The notes below the pieces were generated by a model. That model was not told where the DNA came from. It saw nothing but the letters and a program-made list of their open reading frames with translations, and did no database searches. Positions 2,641-56,703 of a stretch of 64,000 nucleotides of DNA are shown piece after piece (position 1 is the stretch's first letter; each line of letters begins with the position of its first letter). Position numbers and translations under genes: made by a program. The stretch is from Dehalococcoidia bacterium (GTDB lineage Bacteria > Chloroflexota > Dehalococcoidia > Bin125): contig CAXXSR010000002.1 in the NCBI GenBank assembly GCA_963662615.2, positions 384,001 to 448,000 on the forward strand. The letters run 5' to 3'.

Positions 2641-4796
2641 TCGTAGTCCGGATCGTCGTCGGGCGGCGCGTCGGGGGAGCCGACCTGCCGGGCGAATCGC
2701 TTAAATTCACGGCGGAGGCTGACGCCGTGCCCGACCAGCCCCGCCATGTACGTCCGCTGCGGCGTCACTTTGACCCAGATTCGCCGGCGTGGCGCAAAGA
2801 ACGTCACCAAGAACGCCCCCAGGCCCAGTCCAATTGCGATCCAGAAGATTAGAGCGCCGGGGTCGCGGCGCACGTTGAGGCCGGTGAACTCTCGCGGCCC
2901 CAAGAAGCTGTACTCGAAGTCGCCCAGAACAATGGACTCGCCCTCACTGAGGTCAACACGGGGCCGGCCACCGCCCAATCCCAGGCCGAGGCGCGCGGGA
3001 CGGCTGGCGCCATCGATGAACGTCTCGACGTCGGCCACGGCGAGTTCGACGTTCTCGCCGCCACGAGCGTCGAACTGCTCCGCCGTGCGGGCCCCGCCGA
3101 AACGCTCCAGCAAGATCAGCGCTTCCGCCTCTGCGCCGGGAACGTCTTCCTCAATTCGGTAGAAGACGGACTCCACACCGCCGTAGGTCAGCTCCACGCC
3201 ACCGATGCGCTGACTTTCGCCCGGCTGCAGGACACCATGCTGCGAGCGGTCCGGGGCAGCGCCCACGTACTCCAGCACGAACTCGCCCAGAGCGGCGCGA
3301 CCGCCGGCGGCCAAGAGACCACGCTCCCGGTCGTCTTGGAGATTGAAGTAGAAAAAGCGACGCTCCTCATCCCCGGCGGCGAGGTCCGTCTCGTCGTAGC
3401 CAACCGCAATCTCGCGGCCCGCGCCCAGCGGGAGGAGATCGAAGCGGACGCCGCGGCGGCCCTCCAGCGCGCGATCGTTCGCGGGGATCACGTCATCCAG
3501 GAGCAGCTCACCGCTGGCGGCATCGTAGAGACGGACCTGCGGCGCCAGAAGCGGGGGGACGTGCAGGCGCAACGCCTCCGCGTCAAGCGTCGCGTTGCGA
3601 TCGGAGTCGGCTGCATACGGCAAGAGAGTGTAGGAGAACTCGAATTCGCCGTCGCTTGGGGCCGGGGTCAGCACCAGCGCAATGCTGCTCTCGGCGCCCA
3701 AGGGGACCAGCTCGTAGCCGCTGCCGTCGACGCCGGCGACCTCGCGCGATAGTTTCACCACTTCGTCGGCAAGGAATGCGCCGCGAGCGGCGCTGGCGAT
3801 CTTGATGCGTGGCCCAATGAACTGCTGATCCAGCATCAGGATTTCGGAGTAGAGCAGCTGGCGGCTATCGACGTGGCGAACCTGCAAGGCGGCGCCGTGC
3901 TCCCAGTAGGCGGCCTGATGCACCCGGTAGCCGGCGGCGTGCAAGGGGCCGTTGACGGTGACGTCGCCGGCGGCGATCTGCTCCCCGCCGCGGGTGACGC
4001 GCACCGCGCTGCGGAAGTCCAGCGCTTGGCCCTCGTCGTTGAAGCGAGCGATAGCGTCATCGACGATGACTTGAATCTGCTGGCGGTCGCCCGCTGTGGC
4101 GAAGAGCGGCCGGCTCTGCCCTTCGCCGACCCAGAACTGAAACTCCTCTCCGGCGAACTTGGTGATCAGCGCGCCCAGGACCAGCAGGATCAGCCCCAGA
4201 TGCGAGACGAATGTGGCCAGCTGCGCCCACTGAAAGCGGTCGGCGAAGATGTAGGTCGCGCCATCGCGCTCTTCCGTCCGGACCGAGTAGTGGCGGTGGC
4301 GGAACTCCGCCGCGATCAGGTCCGCGTTCGGGGGCGTCGCGAAGTCGAAGCGGTGCCGCGCCCGCTCGAAGTAGGCGTCGTTCACGCGTCGGGGCGGACG
4401 CCGGACAGTGCGCCAGATGGGAGGGAAGCGGCTGATCGTGCAGGTGGTGATGGCCATGGCCAAGACCGCGATGAGCGCCCACCAGTAGGGCTGGTTGAAG
4501 AGGTTGAAGATGCCGCCGTGGGCGTCATAGAACCAAGGGAACTCCGCCAGGACGTCCGTGAACCAGCCCCACGTCCCGCGCTGGTCTTCAATGTGTTGCC
4601 GCACCGTCTCCGGGTTGTTGAGGAGCTGGGGCGGAACCTGCGGGATGATGACGCCGGCGAGGCCGAAGCTGACGGTGACCAGGATCAGGCCGATCGCGAA
4701 GCGCACGGAGGTGAACCGGCGCCAGACGAAGTAGGCGGGGTCCGGCGCGGCGATGCGTCCTGCCTTGCGCGGAGCGCGCGACTGAACCGTCGCCAT
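2637..4796 (-). CDS. resB: Cytochrome c biogenesis protein ResB/Ccs1-like, long form
   Basis: N-terminal TM with G.IIPQ, conserved His (SHLGLIL), VTVNGPL, C-terminal TGLNVRRDPG-TM-RRIWV. Confidence 0.8.
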   Translation of the reverse strand: MATVQSRAPRKAGRIAAPDPAYFVWRRFTSVRFAIGLILVTVSFGLAGVIIPQVPPQLLNNPETVRQHIEDQRGTWGWFTDVLAEFPWFYDAHGGIFNLFNQPYWWALIAVLAMAITTCTISRFPPIWRTVRRPPRRVNDAYFERARHRFDFATPPNADLIAAEFRHRHYSVRTEERDGATYIFADRFQWAQLATFVSHLGLILLVLGALITKFAGEEFQFWVGEGQSRPLFATAGDRQQIQVIVDDAIARFNDEGQALDFRSAVRVTRGGEQIAAGDVTVNGPLHAAGYRVHQAAYWEHGAALQVRHVDSRQLLYSEILMLDQQFIGPRIKIASAARGAFLADEVVKLSREVAGVDGSGYELVPLGAESSIALVLTPAPSDGEFEFSYTLLPYAADSDRNATLDAEALRLHVPPLLAPQVRLYDAASGELLLDDVIPANDRALEGRRGVRFDLLPLGAGREIAVGYDETDLAAGDEERRFFYFNLQDDRERGLLAAGGRAALGEFVLEYVGAAPDRSQHGVLQPGESQRIGGVELTYGGVESVFYRIEEDVPGAEAEALILLERFGGARTAEQFDARGGENVELAVADVETFIDGASRPARLGLGLGGGRPRVDLSEGESIVLGDFEYSFLGPREFTGLNVRRDPGALIFWIAIGLGLGAFLVTFFAPRRRIWVKVTPQRTYMAGLVGHGVSLRREFKRFARQVGSPDAPPDDDPDYE

Positions 4797-6707: not shown

Positions 6708-8128
6708 TATGCCACCTCCCAGAAGCCACGCCCGCGCGCCATGCGGCCCAGGCGCGCGCGCACGTCAAGCAGGGCCGTGTAGGTGGGCAGCACGATCAGG
6801 GGCGCATCGCTCGGCAGGGCGGCGAATGCCTGTCGCAAGGCGTGTCCAACGTCATGGTGCAGCGGCTGCGACGGTTCCGGCAGGCCGGCGTAGCGCAGCC
6901 GCAGGGCCATGTCCGCCGCCCGCGCGCCGCCCAGCACCAGCGACTCCACGTACGGCGCCAGATCTTCCCAGTCCGTGTCCCAGATCCAGGAGATGTCCTT
7001 GCCGTCGGCGACGTCATCGTTGAGGAGCACGAGCAAGTGGTGGCGCGCGCGCGGCCGCGCGAGGGTGCGCAGCACCTCATTGAGCCCGGCGGGGTTCTTG
7101 CCCAGGAGAATCGTGACCGAGTGCCCATTGATGGTGAGCTCCTCCTGACGGCCGAACGGTGTGCGCACCGCAGACAGCGCCGGCCCGGCCGCGGCTGCGC
7201 CGATGCCGAGCGCCCTCGCCGCCGCCGCGGCGGCGAGGGCGTTGTAGACGTTGTAGAGGCCCCGCAGGGGCAGGAGGACGCGCTCTGGGGCGCGCTCTGT
7301 GGTGCCGCCGGCGTGGACCAGATCGAACGCCGCGCCGCGTCCGGCGTCGGACTGGGGATCGATGTTGAGGGCGTAGACAGACGGGCGCGGCCGCGTCGCT
7401 CCTCCAGCGGGGCCGCGCCAGTGGCCGAGGTGAGCGAAGAACCTGCGGTCGTACACGTAATCGGCGCCCGTCTCGGGATCCCAGAGAGCATCGGCCGCGT
7501 GATCGGCGGCGCGTTCTCCCGACATGGCCGCCGTTTCGTCCTCCACGCCGAACATCAGCGTTTGTCCGCGCGCGCCCGCCGCCAGCGTCGCCACGGAGGG
7601 GTCGTCGGCGTTGAGGACCAGCGTTGTCGTGTCGGGGAGCGCCGCGATCGTGCGCACCCAGCGCTCGCGCACCGCGTCGATCTCGCCGTATCGATCGAGC
7701 TGATCGCGGAGCAGATTGCCAATGATCAGCACACGCGGCGGGGCGGCCGCCACGGCGGCGGGCAGCGTCGCCTCGTCGATCTCGAAAACGCCCAGGCAGT
7801 GGCGTGGGAGGCGGCCTGAGGGAGCCGCGGCCTCGATCAGCGCCGCCGCCATCCCGCGCATGAGGTTGGAGCCGGCGCGATTGTGCACCAGCGGGTGGCC
7901 GGCGGCCACGACGATGGCCGCCAGCATGCGGGCGGTGGTGGTCTTGCCGTTGGTCCCCGTCACCAGGACCAGATCGTCGAGCTGTCCGGCGAGGCGGCGC
8001 ACGACGTCGGGGTCAATCCGCTCGGCTACGAGGCCGGGGAGAGCGGTGCCGCCGCTGCCCAGGGCGCGGACGGCGCCGCGCGCGACCTTCCCGGCGATCA
8101 CGGCTGCCTGCGTACGGGGTGCGAGCAT
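6707..8128 (-). CDS. murT: Lipid II amidotransferase ligase subunit MurT
   Basis: GTNGKTTT, EIDEA, RDQLDRYGE, KNPAG, DGKDISWIWD; adjacent to gatD. Confidence 0.92.
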   Translation of the reverse strand: MLAPRTQAAVIAGKVARGAVRALGSGGTALPGLVAERIDPDVVRRLAGQLDDLVLVTGTNGKTTTARMLAAIVVAAGHPLVHNRAGSNLMRGMAAALIEAAAPSGRLPRHCLGVFEIDEATLPAAVAAAPPRVLIIGNLLRDQLDRYGEIDAVRERWVRTIAALPDTTTLVLNADDPSVATLAAGARGQTLMFGVEDETAAMSGERAADHAADALWDPETGADYVYDRRFFAHLGHWRGPAGGATRPRPSVYALNIDPQSDAGRGAAFDLVHAGGTTERAPERVLLPLRGLYNVYNALAAAAAARALGIGAAAAGPALSAVRTPFGRQEELTINGHSVTILLGKNPAGLNEVLRTLARPRARHHLLVLLNDDVADGKDISWIWDTDWEDLAPYVESLVLGGARAADMALRLRYAGLPEPSQPLHHDVGHALRQAFAALPSDAPLIVLPTYTALLDVRARLGRMARGRGFWEVA

Positions 8129-52855: not shown

Positions 52856-54046
52856 TTAGGCGGGCGGCGCTTCCTGCGCGGTCAGGAGCAGGGCGGCGTT
52901 TTGCCCCATGGTTCCGTAGGCGCAGACCGCAGCGGTGTAGAGGCGGTCGCGCTGCGCCTCTTGCACCACGTTGAGGCCGCATTCGGGATCGGGGTCGTGG
53001 TAGGTGGCGTGGGGTGGGGTCATCCCTTCAGCGAGCGCGAAGGCGGCGGCCGCGGCGGAGAGGGCGCCGGAGGCGCCGGCGGCGTAGCCCAGCGCCGGGC
53101 TGACGGCGGTCACGGGGGTGTTGAGGATGCCTTGACCGAACGCGCGTTCCAGGACATCGGTCTCCCGTTCATCGCCGCGCCTGGTGCCGCCGCCGGCGGC
53201 GAAGAGGAGATCCACTTCCTGGGGACTGCGATTCGCCTCCCGCAGGGCGTGGCCGAGCGCCCGCCGGGCGATATCAACATCGGTGGGAGGTGCGCCGTCC
53301 CCGGGCGGTCCTGACGTCGCCGCCGCGCCGGCCAGCTCCGCGTAGATGCGCGCGCCGCGCTGCTCCGCCAGTTCGCGCTCTTCCAGGAGGAGCATGGCTG
53401 CCCCTTCCCCCAGGACCATGCCGTCGCGGAGCAGGTCGAAGGGGCGCTGCGCGTCGGCGCCGGCCTGCCTGGAGAGGAGGCCGGCCGCCTCATAGGCGCC
53501 CCAGACATCCGGGCGCAGAGGCGCCTCGGCGCCGCCGGCGACGGCCACGCTGATCACCTCAGCGCGGATCAAGGCCGCGGCCTGGCTGATGGCGACGAGG
53601 CCAGAGGCGCCGTCGGCGGCGACCGCGTAGGAGGGGCCGGCGATGTTCAGACCCACCGTGGCGCCGGCGAGCCCGCTGCTGAGCAGAGGCCAGCCGGGTT
53701 CGCCCGGCGCGGCCGCGCCGTGGGCCGTTCCCACGATCGCGCCCACCTGGAAGGCGTTGTCCGCGTCGAAGCGAATGCGGGAGTCAGCGATGGCCTGGAT
53801 GGCAGCGTCGAGGGCCAGTTGGGCCGCTCGACCCAGGCGCGCGGTGAAACTGCTAGGGACTCCGGCCGGGCCGCCATAGTCGAGGATCTGCCCCGCGACA
53901 GCCGGCCGGCCCGGCTCAAAGCGGTCGAGCGCGGTGAGGCAGACGCGGCGATCTAGGAGGGCGCGCCAGAGGTCGGGGGCGGTGGGGCCAGCCGCGCTGA
54001 TGGCGCCCACGCCCGTCACCACAACTCGCCTGGATCCCTGCGGCAT
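52856..54046 (-). CDS. Beta-ketoacyl synthase-like protein lacking the catalytic triad (chain-length-factor-like)
   Basis: RRVVVTGVG, RPFD..RDG.VLGEGA, ARIYAE; Cys site reads ADGASG and both His sites are replaced. Confidence 0.8.
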   Translation of the reverse strand: MPQGSRRVVVTGVGAISAAGPTAPDLWRALLDRRVCLTALDRFEPGRPAVAGQILDYGGPAGVPSSFTARLGRAAQLALDAAIQAIADSRIRFDADNAFQVGAIVGTAHGAAAPGEPGWPLLSSGLAGATVGLNIAGPSYAVAADGASGLVAISQAAALIRAEVISVAVAGGAEAPLRPDVWGAYEAAGLLSRQAGADAQRPFDLLRDGMVLGEGAAMLLLEERELAEQRGARIYAELAGAAATSGPPGDGAPPTDVDIARRALGHALREANRSPQEVDLLFAAGGGTRRGDERETDVLERAFGQGILNTPVTAVSPALGYAAGASGALSAAAAAFALAEGMTPPHATYHDPDPECGLNVVQEAQRDRLYTAAVCAYGTMGQNAALLLTAQEAPPA

Positions 54047-54161
54047 GGGGCTATCTTCCCGGCCGGCGGCAGCCGTGCCAAGGCGGGCGGTAGTGTCCTA
54101 GTTTGAGCCCGAGCCCGCCCGCCGAGACGTAATCCGGCCCTGAATGAAAAGTGCCAGACAG

Positions 54162-54983
54162 TCAGGCTGCCAGGCCCACCAAATCCGCCATCGTCCACTG
54201 CCGCGTTGTCACCCCCGCCGCGATCGCAGGCGTCGTCCGCAGCGTGCGATGGGGGCGGACGAAGTTGTACCACGCGAAGTGCAAGGCGACCGCCGCCTCC
54301 AAGTTCTCCCGCTTCTTGCTGAACGCATTGGTCAATCGGGTGAATCTGCGCTGCTGCATCCGCAGGGTGAGGTGGCTCCGCTCCACCAGCGACGTGGAGG
54401 TCCGGGCGAGATCGGAGTCGCCCACAATGATGTGCTTGTCCGCCGCCACCACGCGCCGGGGCGGGCTGTACCGCCCGCTACTTTGCTCCGACTCGTAGGA
54501 CTTTACGATGGTGGCGAAGTCCACCTGCCCGCCAAAGCTGGCTTCCACGGCGGTGACGTAGTGCGAGAGACCGTCCGCGCTCAACTGGATTCGGTTCGCC
54601 AGTCGCCAGGACAGATCGCGCATGAACCAATCCGCATCCCTGCGCGTGCGCTTGCCGACGTGGAAGGTCGGCACGATATTTGTCTCTGGGTCGAGCGCGA
54701 CCCAACACCAAGAATCGCCGGTTTCGAGGGGATCATCGTCGGGGCGGACCTGCGCCTCCTTCTTGCCGACATAGGTCCAAATCTCATCGACCTCGATGTG
54801 CTCACATTTCAAGTCACGCATGAGCACGTCCATGACCTCGCGGGAGGTCCGGCCTGCGCGCAGCATGAGCCGCGTGATCGTGTCCCGGTGGACGCCCGTC
54901 ATGCGCTCCACGGACCGGATCGACGTGCCCTCCACGAGCGCGCAGAGCACTGATTCTTGCTTTTCGGCCTTGAGTCGGTTCAT
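54162..54983 (-). CDS. IS1-family DDE transposase (HTH + DDE, no Zn finger)
   Basis: EG.SIRSVERMTGV HTH; EVDEIW, ADG..HY, VERSHLTLR..RRFTR.TNAFSKK. Confidence 0.92.
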   Translation of the reverse strand: MNRLKAEKQESVLCALVEGTSIRSVERMTGVHRDTITRLMLRAGRTSREVMDVLMRDLKCEHIEVDEIWTYVGKKEAQVRPDDDPLETGDSWCWVALDPETNIVPTFHVGKRTRRDADWFMRDLSWRLANRIQLSADGLSHYVTAVEASFGGQVDFATIVKSYESEQSSGRYSPPRRVVAADKHIIVGDSDLARTSTSLVERSHLTLRMQQRRFTRLTNAFSKKRENLEAAVALHFAWYNFVRPHRTLRTTPAIAAGVTTRQWTMADLVGLAA

Positions 54984-55003
54984 CAGCCGCCTGCTATCTT
55001 GAG

Positions 55004-55073
55004 TGGAGCGCCGGGGGATCGGACCCCGTGAAGCATGGATGTAAGGCCCAGCCCAGAGACCAACTCGCGCCCC
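55004..55073 (-). ncRNA. tRNA-like / tmRNA-TLD-like structure
   Basis: 7-bp acceptor stem GGGGCGC/GCGCTCC plus discriminator A; perfect 5-bp T-stem CGGGG/CCCCG with 7-nt loop TCCGATC; no D-stem; no encoded CCA. Confidence 0.6.
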
Positions 55074-55078
55074 ATGCA

Positions 55079-55112
55079 GAACGGCGACGCGCGGAGGGGC
55101 GCGTCGCCGTTC
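55079..55112. terminator. Perfect 14-bp hairpin right after the fic stop codon
   Basis: GAACGGCGACGCGC-GGAGGG-GCGCGTCGCCGTTC; no clear U-tract. Confidence 0.6.
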
Positions 55113-55115
55113 GTT

Positions 55116-56225
55116 CTACGTCGTTGCGGAAAGCTCTTTTTCCTCAAGTCCCGCTCCGATGACCTTCCGGAACTCGTCATCGATCGTGTACCTCGTATTC
55201 TTGCCCCGGCCTTTCCGCATCACGATGCCAGCCTCCACCATGTCTTTCAGATCGGAGAAGGCGACTGATTGCGATGCATTAGTCAGTCGGGCATAGGCGG
55301 ATGTCGAGAGCGGGCTCAGGTCAAGCATGAACATAGTTCCGAGCGCTTGTCGCGCGTTGAACGTGCCCTCCAAGTGCTCCACGAACGAGTCCTTCTCCCT
55401 GTTGAATCTGACGACTGCCCTCTCCAGCTGCGCCGATGCCATGCTCAGCATCGTTTGATGAAACTCAACGAATGGCGACGTATCCACCGCCTCGCTGAAA
55501 TTCTCACCCTGGGTATCTCTGAGCGTGTCGTAATACTTCTGCCGTTGATCCCAGATGCTCTGACTCACCGATAACAACCCATCCGCTGACCAGTCGGTGA
55601 GGGTCAAGATCGTGTCGGCCAGCAGACGAGCGGTCCGACCGTTGCCGTCCTCGAATGGGTGGATTGAAATCAGTCCAAAGTGTGCCATTGCTGCGACGAT
55701 GGGCGACGGATAGGTGCCTTCAGCCATCCACTGCTGGATGTCCGCCACAAACGCTTCCATCAGTTCGGGCACGAATGCGGGCGGGGGGGGCCGGTATCGT
55801 ATGTCGCGTGTCTGTGAATCAACGATCAGCGCCGGTCCGACGCGGTATCGCCCACGCCGCTGCGCCTGCTGGCCAGGAAGACCCTTGAGGATCAGCGAGT
55901 TCATCGTGCGGATCAGTCCTTGGTCGATCTTCACGGACTGATCGCCCACTAGCTGATCGACGAGTTCGTACGCCGCTTGCAGGTTCGTAATCTCTATCTC
56001 TTCCGGCTCCGACTCGTCCGCCCCCTCGACCAACACCAGCAGCGCTTGCTGTTCGCCAATCTGGTTCCCCTCAATGGCCGTGGAGGTATGGGCATTGATG
56101 TACCGCGCCTTCTGGCGGAAGTACGCCTCAAAGCCGGGTGGAACGAGCGTCCGGATGACGTACAATCGGTCGCGGAGGAAATCGACGTCCTGGCACTCGT
56201 CGTTGCAGGTCATTGTGAGTTTCAT
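55116..56225 (-). CDS. Fic-family protein with N-terminal inhibitory motif and C-terminal winged helix
   Basis: HPFEDGNGRTAR, STAIEGN, C-terminal DL..MV..G....G.G..TRY; start could be 56255. Confidence 0.92.
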   Translation of the reverse strand: MKLTMTCNDECQDVDFLRDRLYVIRTLVPPGFEAYFRQKARYINAHTSTAIEGNQIGEQQALLVLVEGADESEPEEIEITNLQAAYELVDQLVGDQSVKIDQGLIRTMNSLILKGLPGQQAQRRGRYRVGPALIVDSQTRDIRYRPPPPAFVPELMEAFVADIQQWMAEGTYPSPIVAAMAHFGLISIHPFEDGNGRTARLLADTILTLTDWSADGLLSVSQSIWDQRQKYYDTLRDTQGENFSEAVDTSPFVEFHQTMLSMASAQLERAVVRFNREKDSFVEHLEGTFNARQALGTMFMLDLSPLSTSAYARLTNASQSVAFSDLKDMVEAGIVMRKGRGKNTRYTIDDEFRKVIGAGLEEKELSATT

Positions 56226-56342
56226 CGCCGTGCTCCCGTCTGAATATTCTCTCACGCAACCAGCATATACGTATATTCGTTCCCGTCAATGGTAAATGGA
56301 GGTTCTTAGCCGGAATATGCTGGTAATCGCCGGGCAGGCGGG

Positions 56343-56645
56343 ATGACTGAGACGAACACCGACGCCCTGCACCGCGCCATCCGCGACCTCCACGGCTGCG
56401 AGAGCCGCTGGGTAGAGGCCGTGCCAGTCACCGAGACGTTTGAGGGACAGACCGTCTGGGAAGGCGCTGTCCAGGTCTTTGACCTGATCGACCACCCCAC
56501 GGCCAAGCGCGCCTACGCCTGGTCCCATCCCACAGACGACGAATCGGGGCCGCGGCGCTACGTCGCCGTGCTCCATGAGGGGCCGGTGAACTCACCGCGC
56601 AAGGCGGTCCAAGCGGCGATTGTCCAAGAGCAGCGGGGGGGATAG
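56343..56645 (+). CDS. Small hypothetical protein at the right end of the IS
   Basis: 100-aa ORF with globular-protein composition (LHGC, VWEG.V.VF, AYAW, SP..AV.AAI), ending just inside the TIR. Confidence 0.8.
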   Translation: MTETNTDALHRAIRDLHGCESRWVEAVPVTETFEGQTVWEGAVQVFDLIDHPTAKRAYAWSHPTDDESGPRRYVAVLHEGPVNSPRKAVQAAIVQEQRGG

Positions 56646-56703
56646 CGATGGATTGCCCAAATTGCGCTGCCAAATTAGGACACTACCAAGGCGGGCGTCC
56701 TGA

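Follow-up and report, generated by a model that had tools for sequence, protein, structure and literature searches.

The DNA analysed here (hereafter, the window) is a stretch of 64,000 nucleotides (nt) of the Dehalococcoidia bacterium assembly GCA_963662615.2 (contig CAXXSR010000002.1, positions 384,001 to 448,000). It contains a cargo-carrying insertion sequence (IS) of the IS1 family, in which a 70-nt sequence resembling a tRNA (hereafter, the tRNA-like element) lies between the cargo gene and the transposase gene (Table 1). Along the minus strand, the left end is followed by a 100-aa open reading frame (ORF) on the opposite strand, a promoter-like site, the cargo gene fic, a hairpin, the tRNA-like element, the transposase gene and the right end. 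The 17-nt terminal inverted repeats (GGTAGTGTCCTA[A/G]TTTG) start with GGTAGTG, match each other at 16 of 17 positions and are flanked by identical copies of a 9-bp direct repeat. An IS1-type DDE transposase and terminal inverted repeats with a short target duplication define the IS1 family, and the element has both. The hallmarks given by ISfinder are GG...TG ends and an 8-9 bp duplication, and a cargo-carrying subgroup is described there. Another inverted-repeat pair (54036-54051 and 55069-55084) was considered as the element ends and rejected, because it is the 54089/56687 pair that has the duplication. No second copy of the element or of its transposase was found elsewhere in its own genome.

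Table 1 Features of the IS1-family element and its borders, in window coordinates.
Feature	Position	Strand	Remarks
Whole mobile element, cargo-carrying IS1-family insertion sequence	54089-56687	-	2,599 bp; terminal inverted repeats and 9-bp duplication
Target-site duplication, transposase end, AAGGCGGGC on the plus strand	54080-54088		Identical to 56688-56696
Target-site duplication, cargo end	56688-56696		Direct reading
Terminal inverted repeat, transposase end, GGTAGTGTCCTAGTTTG	54089-54105	+	Same motif bounds related elements
Terminal inverted repeat, cargo end, GGTAGTGTCCTAATTTG on the minus strand	56671-56687	-	
Transposase gene, IS1 family	54162-54983	-	273 aa; single ORF; helix-turn-helix region at start
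Spacer between tRNA-like element and transposase ATG	54984-55003	-	20 nt; AGGCGG 5 nt before the ATG
tRNA-like element	55004-55073	-	70 nt; best match of models R1 and R2
Perfect hairpin 3' of the fic stop codon	55079-55112	-	14 bp, 6-nt loop; arms 55079-55092/55099-55112; no T-run after it
Cargo gene, Fic-domain protein	55116-56255	-	379 aa; Pfam Fic 3.1e-16
Sigma-70-like promoter match just upstream of fic, the only one in the element	56262-56289	-	TTGACG-16-TATGCT, 9/12; consensus match only
Small accessory ORF, antisense to fic and transposase	56343-56645	+	100 aa; no known family

The transposase just passes the cutoff of the Pfam model PF03400 DDE_Tnp_IS1 (25.6 bits, cutoff 24.1), stays below that of the NCBIfam equivalog transpos_IS1 (56.9 bits, cutoff 100), and has 7,425 homologues at E ≤ 0.001 among the 8,000 candidates scored, the named ones being IS1 family transposases. 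The hairpin begins 3 nt past the fic stop codon (55116-55118) and ends 5 nt ahead of the tRNA-like element. It was not called as a terminator in a terminator scan of the element, and the promoter scan of the element returned no promoter-like site between fic and the transposase gene. The coordinates agree with the original prediction, which had placed the tRNA-like element 5 nt after a perfect 14-bp hairpin following the fic stop and 20 nt upstream of the transposase start codon (ATG at 54983); the latter spacing turned out to be peculiar to the window lineage.

Read on the minus strand from 55073 to 55004, the tRNA-like element has exactly the sequence that had been quoted for it. Its acceptor stem comprises 7 bp (GGGGCGC/GCGCTCC) with a G3·U70 pair (G3·T70 in the DNA) and the discriminator A73, and stacked on it is a 5-bp T stem (CGGGG/CCCCG) with a 7-nt loop (TCCGATC); the discriminator is followed by ACTC and not by CCA, which is thus unencoded. 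Direct reading bore out the original prediction on each of these points. The acceptor and T arm have the dimensions expected of a tRNA, both by direct reading and in a geometry scan, and the combination of a 5-bp/7-nt anticodon arm with a 3-4-bp D stem is lacking from the window copy. A stemless D-loop had been proposed; the D region is indeed reduced, but it is not strictly stemless, as GAG (8-10) can pair with CTC (16-18) around TTGGT to give a possible 3-bp mini D stem with a GG-containing loop, and the sister copy in genome G004 has a 4-bp stem there. The central arm is degenerate, with an anticodon-like loop UUACA (UAC, not an Ala anticodon) on a broken stem. In the alignment to the covariance model R1 (described below), the anticodon stem of the window copy is marked as non-pairing and its D arm is cut to 12 nt.

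Of the detectors that had been suggested as checks, ARAGORN and the tRNA and tmRNA covariance models did not recognize the window copy. ARAGORN called 0 tRNA and 0 tmRNA genes in the 64-kb window, and an Rfam search of 53900-55400 at E ≤ 10 gave no match to the tRNA (RF00005) or tmRNA (RF00023) model. The RNAfold z-score was -1.23, with 19 of 200 shuffled sequences folding equally well. The window contains 6 instances of the bare geometry (a 7-bp acceptor with at most one G·U, together with a perfect 5-bp stem closing a 7-nt loop), compared with 2.3 ± 2.0 in 30 dinucleotide shuffles. Judged alone, the tRNA-like element of the window is at chance level, and any claim about it must therefore rest on comparison with relatives. 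The other five geometry matches lie at 7280, 15187, 27420, 27529 and 32961, and R1 has a 12.3-bit match at 4238-4318; all of these fall in GC-rich, coding-like sequence and were taken as chance, as were the Rfam matches to Mcr7 (21.2 bits) and mir-1323.

For this comparison 54 loci from reference genomes, 80 from metagenomes and a few from relatives of the window's genome were gathered. Apart from a broken copy in genome G004, their transposases are at most 55% identical to that of the window; protein homologues at 70-74% identity exist, and the DNA comparison rests on the relatives at ≤55%. An end motif of the GGTAGTGTCCTAA type is conserved throughout the related elements and bounds elements of ~1.9-4.1 kb, so the IS subgroup generally carries cargo. 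The cargo is variable, and no Pfam family was common to the ten cargo ORFs adjoining tRNA-like elements that were annotated.

ARAGORN was applied to 574,033 nt of sequence from the 114 loci whose transposase matches were nearly full-length. It made 23 calls, 22 of them on the transposase strand and 20 at 143-535 nt upstream of the transposase gene, with none downstream. The anticodons were often odd (tta four times, cta, tat, act and the four-base gata); the tta elements are those of loci L036, L086, L113 and L136, the cta called by ARAGORN is in L085, and gata is in L021. Rfam tRNA scores of the relatives (gathering score 29) were 67.4 bits in L005, 64.4 in L031, 43.8 in L016, 43.3 in L021, 32.5 in L027 and 31.8 in L023. 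Beyond the ARAGORN calls, the covariance model R1, built from L085 and L016 only, added five loci, Rfam one and the geometry scan four. In total, a tRNA-like element was detected upstream of the transposase gene and on the same strand in 30 of the 98 loci having >400 nt of upstream sequence. The geometry itself is 16-fold denser upstream of the transposase (0.305/kb; 21 in 68.8 kb) than elsewhere (0.0185/kb; 20 in 1,079 kb). The element of L086 lies 812 nt upstream of its transposase gene, and those of L019, L097 and L100 are on the opposite strand, beside the left end. Both ends of the insertion sequence were found in 21 of the 34 bearing loci, with the tRNA-like element between them and with exact 8-bp duplications in 12, indicating that these sequences are parts of the transposons and not host tRNA genes beside insertions.

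The absence of the element from many relatives is real, given that R1, applied without filters to 71.5 kb from 13 loci that had no call, returned 0 matches at E ≤ 1. No tRNA-like element was found in the plasmid homologues of Mesorhizobium loti and Methylocapsa polymorpha. In the genomes containing L016, L027 and L015, R1 detected the known copy and ordinary tRNAs only, and in the window's own genome it detected only a tRNA-Arg gene and one 17.5-bit match. The transposase tree on which presence was compared comprised 103 of the 114 loci and the window (11 were dropped for a stop in the span, a length of <230 aa or a start off the contig).

Models built from the relatives recovered the window copy. 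Within the 2.8-kb element region (5.6 kb searched), the best match of R1 was 55004-55073 on the minus strand (16.7 bits, E=7e-4; the next scored 9.8 bits). A second model, R2, built from five relatives of a short class (L079, L027, L116, L015 and L088), had its best match at 55004-55073 on the minus strand when the whole window was searched on both strands (31.4 bits, E=0.0014; the next scored 14.8 bits). Both models were built without the window copy, and both return the identical ends 55004 and 55073. The best global alignment of the window copy was to L085, with a score of 19.5 compared with 10.2 ± 1.8 for shuffled sequences (reached by 0 of 500). Independent support comes from contigs in four public sequencing runs, where other sequences share only 55002/3-55074/81 with the window, which marks the element as a discrete module. 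A contig of run X10 carries a relative in which 55081 is joined to 56376, without fic, the break being 8 nt upstream of the tRNA-like element; fic and its hairpin thus behave as a cassette that can be inserted or deleted. The window copy therefore has the placement of the relatives, inside an element, after the cargo and before the transposase, and it is recovered by models foreign to it. Taken together, these comparisons showed that 55004-55073 belongs to a family of predicted tRNA-shaped genes inside cargo-bearing IS1-family elements with 8-9-bp duplications.

To what extent the stems are maintained was evaluated by pair counting in seven distinct sequences (group A), including the window copy. 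Pairing was retained in 93.1% of the cells, compared with 73.8 ± 2.4% for shuffled partners (0 of 500 reach it) and 38-50% for slid partners, figures that have to be read with a bias towards structure, as the alignment was model-fitted. The acceptor helix (7 bp) and the T helix (5 bp) were paired in 100% of cells, with four pairs in each changed on both sides; the D helix (88.9%) and the anticodon helix (75%) were weaker. G1-C72, G2-C71 and G3·U70 were present in all seven sequences. RNAalifold, applied to a plain MAFFT alignment of six short-class sequences, returned the same two helices, with G3·U70 in six of six. The compensatory changes span elements whose transposases are only ~50% identical, and the kept G·U pairs, which would be A·C on the opposite strand, indicate an RNA read in the direction of the cargo gene. 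The GGG.../...UCC-A class comprises 11 of the 28 distinct IS-borne sequences, geometry-scan members included, so the G3·U70/A73 set highlighted in the original prediction is a property of one class and not of all IS-borne tRNA-like elements. At position 55 of the T loop, where U is near-universal, L016, L085, L076, L072, L118, L144 and the window copy have C (UCCGA, UCCAA).

A sister element is present in G004, a genome from a related genus in the same family as the window's, which has the same order of small ORF, fic, hairpin, 8 nt, tRNA-like element, 21 nt and transposase. Its fic homologue (69% identity over 366 aa) is in the same position; its hairpin is perfect and in the same place, with a sequence unrelated to that of the window hairpin, and the 21-nt spacer differs in sequence as well. 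Identity between the window and G004 was 81.4% in the tRNA-like element, 73.1% in the first 186 nt of the transposase gene, 68.0% in the last 150 nt of fic and 58.3% in the hairpin region. All 24 bases of the acceptor and T stems are identical, and the 13 differences all fall at other positions (hypergeometric P=0.002). The G004 copy has CCA encoded after A73 and a 4-bp mini D stem. Covarying stems, G·U pairs kept in one strand sense and stems unchanged between sister copies indicate that selection acts on a minihelix at the RNA level. The G004 transposase (L006/L010 1501-2186, minus strand) is in pieces in different frames with 43-65% identity, and fic and the tRNA-like element of this genome look intact.

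The genomic context of the relatives was profiled with 25 distinct bearing loci for ORF gaps and 24 for upstream folding, exact duplicates and three minus-strand loci being excluded. In 16 of the 25, the end of a co-directional ORF precedes the tRNA-like element by no more than 200 nt, with a gap of only 5-8 nt in L027, L085, L118 and L144. In 13 of the 24, the 60 nt upstream fold unusually stably, no more than 5 of 40 local controls being equally stable (Mann-Whitney P=9e-4). In L019, the element is opposite to the transposase strand, 37 nt from the left end and 5 nt past a cargo ORF of 358 aa, indicating that it is associated with the cargo 3' end and not with the start of the transposase gene. 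The 100 nt upstream of the tRNA-like elements are unrelated between insertion sequences (54-61%), and in five of six pairs the elements themselves, at 72-78% identity, follow the transposase DNA, at 68-76%; the exception is L072/L079, with values of 72% and 87.6%. The distance to the transposase gene is 143-535 nt in most relatives and 20-21 nt in the window lineage. Given these patterns, we conclude that the tRNA-like element delimits the cargo at its 3' end, where the cargo meets the conserved core, and that the nearness of the element to the transposase here is a lineage-specific deletion. Some relatives have further features in the intervening region. In L085 (520-690, minus strand) and L072 (1492-1701, minus strand), a small ORF antisense to the transposase lies between it and the tRNA-like element and looks like a ribbon-helix-helix DNA-binding protein from its predicted sequence. 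AT-rich repeats with GTAATAC/TTACG-type motifs and a TTGAC-type -35 box occur upstream of the transposase in L085, L016, L076 and L088. The antisense ORF and the repeats may form a divergent regulator-operator unit, and both the ORF and the AT-rich region are missing from the window element.

Comparison with known RNAs placed the family near several tRNA-shaped molecules. In the short class (67-70 nt), the acceptor is followed by a GG-containing segment, either a short linker or a mini D arm, then by a single central hairpin and the T arm. The window copy is of this short type, and its shape, an acceptor-T minihelix with a reduced D arm and a degenerate anticodon arm, is similar to that of the tRNA-like domain of tmRNA and to mascRNA. 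With a relaxed threshold, the Rfam tmRNA model matched L079 (41.6 bits), L027 (41.5) and L159 of genome G008 (39.8) at E of ~1e-13, and L035 at 27 bits (E 3.5e-7); all of these matches run through both ends of the model only and lie below its gathering score of 47. The short-class relatives are, as far as their predicted structures indicate, RNAs resembling the tRNA-like domain (TLD) of tmRNA without a messenger part. They share with the TLD the acceptor with G3·U70 and A73, the T arm and a reduced D region with GG, and they differ in being borne by transposons, in measuring only 67-70 nt and in having neither an mRNA-like frame nor pseudoknots. The window copy has the G3·U70, A73 and T arm of a tmRNA; it lacks the mRNA-like domain and the pseudoknots, is 70 nt long and has no RF00023 match, let alone one of at least 47 bits. 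The TLD likeness that had been claimed thus suits the class and is borne out in relatives; by the defining tests, the window copy is neither a tmRNA nor a tRNA. The host has a normal tmRNA elsewhere in its genome. An isolated case is found in L159 (1330-1930), where a hairpin is followed after 9 nt by a 70-nt G3·U70 element with CCA (tmRNA model E=2e-13). No IS1 transposase or fic was found within 1.5 kb of it; the element stands amid the 3' end of an aldo/keto-reductase-like ORF in three tandem copies, with the hairpin duplicated as well, an arrangement that may be the scar of serial site-specific insertions.

A resemblance of another kind is to mascRNA and the MEN-beta tRNA-like RNA of vertebrates (RF01684). 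These, too, are small tRNA-shaped modules that combine a mini D arm with a reduced anticodon arm and are found where a longer transcript ends 3'. The Rfam mascRNA-menRNA model scored L035 at 44.9 bits (gathering score 42.5), L079 at 28.6 and the G004 copy at 27.8 (E=0.018, its best Rfam match). In MALAT1-mascRNA, cleavage by RNase P creates the 3' terminus of the RNA lying upstream, and a structure immediately before this terminus protects it. The mechanism proposed below would follow the same logic. The vertebrate RNA is a nuclear long noncoding RNA and the present one belongs to a bacterial transposon, hence the likeness is one of shape and does not imply descent. With tRNA-Ala the window copy shares the G3·U70 and A73 set and the GGGG...CUCCA acceptor, and its T arm is like that of the host tRNA-Ala(tgc) with compensatory differences; it differs in having no Rfam or ARAGORN call, UAC on a broken stem, a reduced D arm and C55. 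Punctuation by tRNAs, as in mitochondrial transcripts and bacterial tRNA-mRNA operons, similarly places a tRNA-shaped unit between coding regions, where its excision by RNase P and RNase Z separates the messages. The window unit, by contrast, does not function as a decoder, is carried by a mobile element and is a putative processing substrate.

Structured RNAs are also known from other insertion sequences, namely the bridge or seek RNAs of IS110/IS1111 and the omega RNAs of IS200/IS605 and IS607. Like these, the IS1-borne element is a conserved noncoding RNA beside the transposase module. Bridge and omega RNAs guide a recombinase or nuclease by base pairing, whereas nothing suggests guiding by the IS1 tRNA-like RNA; the transposase here is of the DDE type, and the RNA, which has the shape of a tRNA, is frequently missing from close relatives.

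In view of the comparisons above, it is very likely that the IS-borne tRNA-like RNA is genuine and under selection, and the claim of the original prediction that the transposon encodes a tRNA mimic is supported by the homologous elements with covarying acceptor and T stems in related insertion sequences. The explanation that we consider best overall, and somewhat on the probable side, is that the window copy is a member of this family serving as punctuation at the 3' end of the cargo transcript, processed by RNases P and Z. Since fic is preceded by the only promoter-like site and followed by a hairpin that has no U-tract, a common transcript of fic, the tRNA-like element and the transposase gene is probable. 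RNase P would then cut at the 5' end of the tRNA-like element (~55073/55074), and RNase Z or RNase E would cut after A73 (~55004). The fic mRNA would be left with a hairpin-protected 3' end, and the downstream transposase mRNA would be uncoupled from it and probably limited, retaining a 20-nt processed leader. The released minihelix may gain CCA and, in the G3·U70 class, alanine. RNase P, RNase Z and the CCA-adding enzyme recognize the tRNA shape, which is the only property common to all classes, i.e., the ordinary-looking (64-67 bits), long-arm (anticodons tta, tag, tga and tat), G3·U70 and TLD-like ones. G3·U70 with A73 is the identity set of alanyl-tRNA synthetase (AlaRS), and SmpB binds the TLD of tmRNA; the invariance of G3·U70/A73 within its class suggests that the excised RNA could also be recognized by AlaRS.

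As a mechanism, processing and punctuation can be put forward only tentatively, with rather less than an even chance of being right, and several observations weigh against it or against the family assignment on which it builds. Neither ARAGORN nor Rfam called the window copy, R1 with default filters missed it in the whole window (returning only the match at 4238-4318), and the pair counts carry the alignment bias noted above. R2 also scored ordinary tRNA-Ala-sized genes in relatives at 36-41 bits and is therefore not specific to the IS class. Only about one-third of the related loci bear a detectable tRNA-like element and close sisters of bearers are without one, so it is dispensable for transposition. 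Many of the hairpins upstream of tRNA-like elements in relatives have T-rich tails, suggesting termination before the element, at odds with obligatory co-transcription. A TTGAC-type motif is located in an AT-rich region just upstream of the transposase in L085, L016, L076 and L088; if this region is a promoter, gating of the transposase mRNA would be limited to the window lineage. A simple promoter scanner run on L085 and L016 did not call the TTGAC-type motif on the transposase strand. Finally, the invariant G3·U70 is unexplained by a pure processing role, and this keeps alive the reading in which the RNA acts in trans.

In that reading, the RNA mimics a tRNA or tmRNA: after addition of CCA and charging by AlaRS, it would be bound by EF-Tu and/or SmpB as a 'mini-tmRNA' made of the TLD only, or else it would act as a decoy for nucleases directed at tRNAs, with processing being just a maturation step. 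G1-C72, G2-C71, G3·U70 and A73 are invariant in 11 distinct sequences in which positions 4-7/66-69 vary freely, and drift to G-C would be expected of a neutral G·U. The G004 copy, L085, L106 and L015 encode CCA, the tmRNA model matches both ends of L079, L027 and L159 (39.8-41.6 bits), and the anticodon arms are degenerate, from which it follows that decoding is not the selected function. G3·U70 is nonetheless missing in the tgt, gct and long-arm classes and in the minus-strand class (G3-C70), the tmRNA scores do not reach the gathering score and the window copy scores nothing, C stands at T-loop position 55 in five of the seven group-A sequences, and the benefit to the element is not evident. 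We regard a mimic in trans as unlikely, and the more specific proposal that IS1-family transposons carry an alanine-chargeable TLD-only mini-tmRNA or tRNA-Ala mimic acting on SmpB, EF-Tu or stalled ribosomes as quite unlikely. The failure of tRNA detectors on the window copy, its degenerate D and anticodon arms, C55 and missing CCA would also fit a decaying passenger, in which an ancestral element took up a tRNA or an ssrA-derived gene and the window copy is a pseudogene without a present role; some relatives bear ordinary-looking tRNAs (64-67 bits), and presence on the transposase tree is patchy. A passenger of this kind seems unlikely as well, since compensatory change keeps the stems across elements with ~50%-identical transposases, 0 of the 13 sister differences fall in the 24 stem positions (P=0.002), and the tRNA-like element is at least as well conserved as the coding DNA around it (81.4% compared with 68-73% in flanking coding sequence in G004, and 72-78% compared with 68-76% in five of six pairs). 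There is also no close host tRNA. A near-identical source would have pointed to the one-off decayed capture against which the original prediction had cautioned; no such host, phage or plasmid source was found in what was searched. The best host match was a tRNA-Gly (18.5 compared with 12.45 ± 1.9 for shuffles, reached by 1 of 200), far from near-identical, and 54984-55112 was without a match when 50,697 phage records and 72,556 plasmid records were searched by blastn.

The position at the border of variable cargo and conserved core also brings to mind a recombination site or cassette boundary (att- or attC-like), used as DNA or as folded single-stranded DNA and marking the junction of cargo exchange, for which tRNA and tmRNA genes, as classic integrase targets, would offer a precedent. 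The upstream 100 nt are unrelated (54-61%), the relative without fic breaks 8 nt upstream of the tRNA-like element, L072 and L079 have transposases 87.6% identical with tRNA-like elements only 72% identical, and in G008 a hairpin and TLD-like element lie amid three tandem copies of a gene 3' end. Such a site is nevertheless very unlikely as the explanation, because the G·U pairs are strand-specific (A·C on the other strand) and point to RNA, no integrase was noticed among the listed cargo ORFs (Pfam annotation covering ten), and no direct repeat of the 3' half of the tRNA-like element was found at the other cargo border. Genomic islands integrate 3' of tRNA genes, unlike the cargo here, which lies 5' of the tRNA-like element. 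Chance resemblance in GC-rich DNA, to which the count of six geometries compared with 2.3 ± 2.0 in shuffles, the z-score of -1.23 and the lack of any detector call would conform, is highly improbable given that R1 and R2, built without the window copy, recover its exact ends, G004 has a homologous copy in the corresponding place and the similarity to L085 is equalled by 0 of 500 shuffles. Of these explanations, the processed punctuation at the end of the cargo transcript is the one that we prefer.

Insertion sequences are usually viewed as a transposase gene between two ends, and RNAs inside some IS families have recently proved central to how those elements work. No literature on tRNA-like RNAs in IS1-family elements was found within the coverage of our search, which did not extend to subscription journals and ISfinder, and Rfam has no dedicated family for IS-borne tRNA-like RNAs. 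Modules of this kind are known as such; their setting in IS1-family elements is undescribed in the literature within that coverage. A widespread IS1 subgroup repeatedly carries a tRNA-shaped gene at the border of its variable cargo and its core. Should the RNA serve as a processing signal, it would provide a bacterial parallel to 3'-end formation in MALAT1-mascRNA and would allow cargo to be expressed without over-expression of the transposase. A charged RNA acting in trans would represent a new kind of mobile tRNA mimic and, if the mini-tmRNA reading is true, a transposon-encoded modulator of ribosome rescue or of tRNA-directed defence. IS-borne tRNA-like elements are currently annotated as odd tRNAs (with stop, 'Pyl' or four-base anticodons) or not at all, which a dedicated RNA family model would correct.

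The small ORF at the cargo end of the window element had no Pfam or NCBIfam match, and its matches in the protein atlas were clusters of hypothetical proteins only. ORFs of ~100 aa recur in L014 (4747-5106), L016 (4791-5123), possibly L019 (3727-4170) and L010 (3075-3161); for L014, L016 and L019 the likeness rests on visual comparison of the translations, and that in G004 comes from tblastn (62% over 29 aa). The ORF is usually directly after the transposase and on the same strand, and in the window and G004 it is at the other end and on the opposite strand. Judging from this predicted recurrence, it looks like a conserved accessory gene of the IS subgroup.

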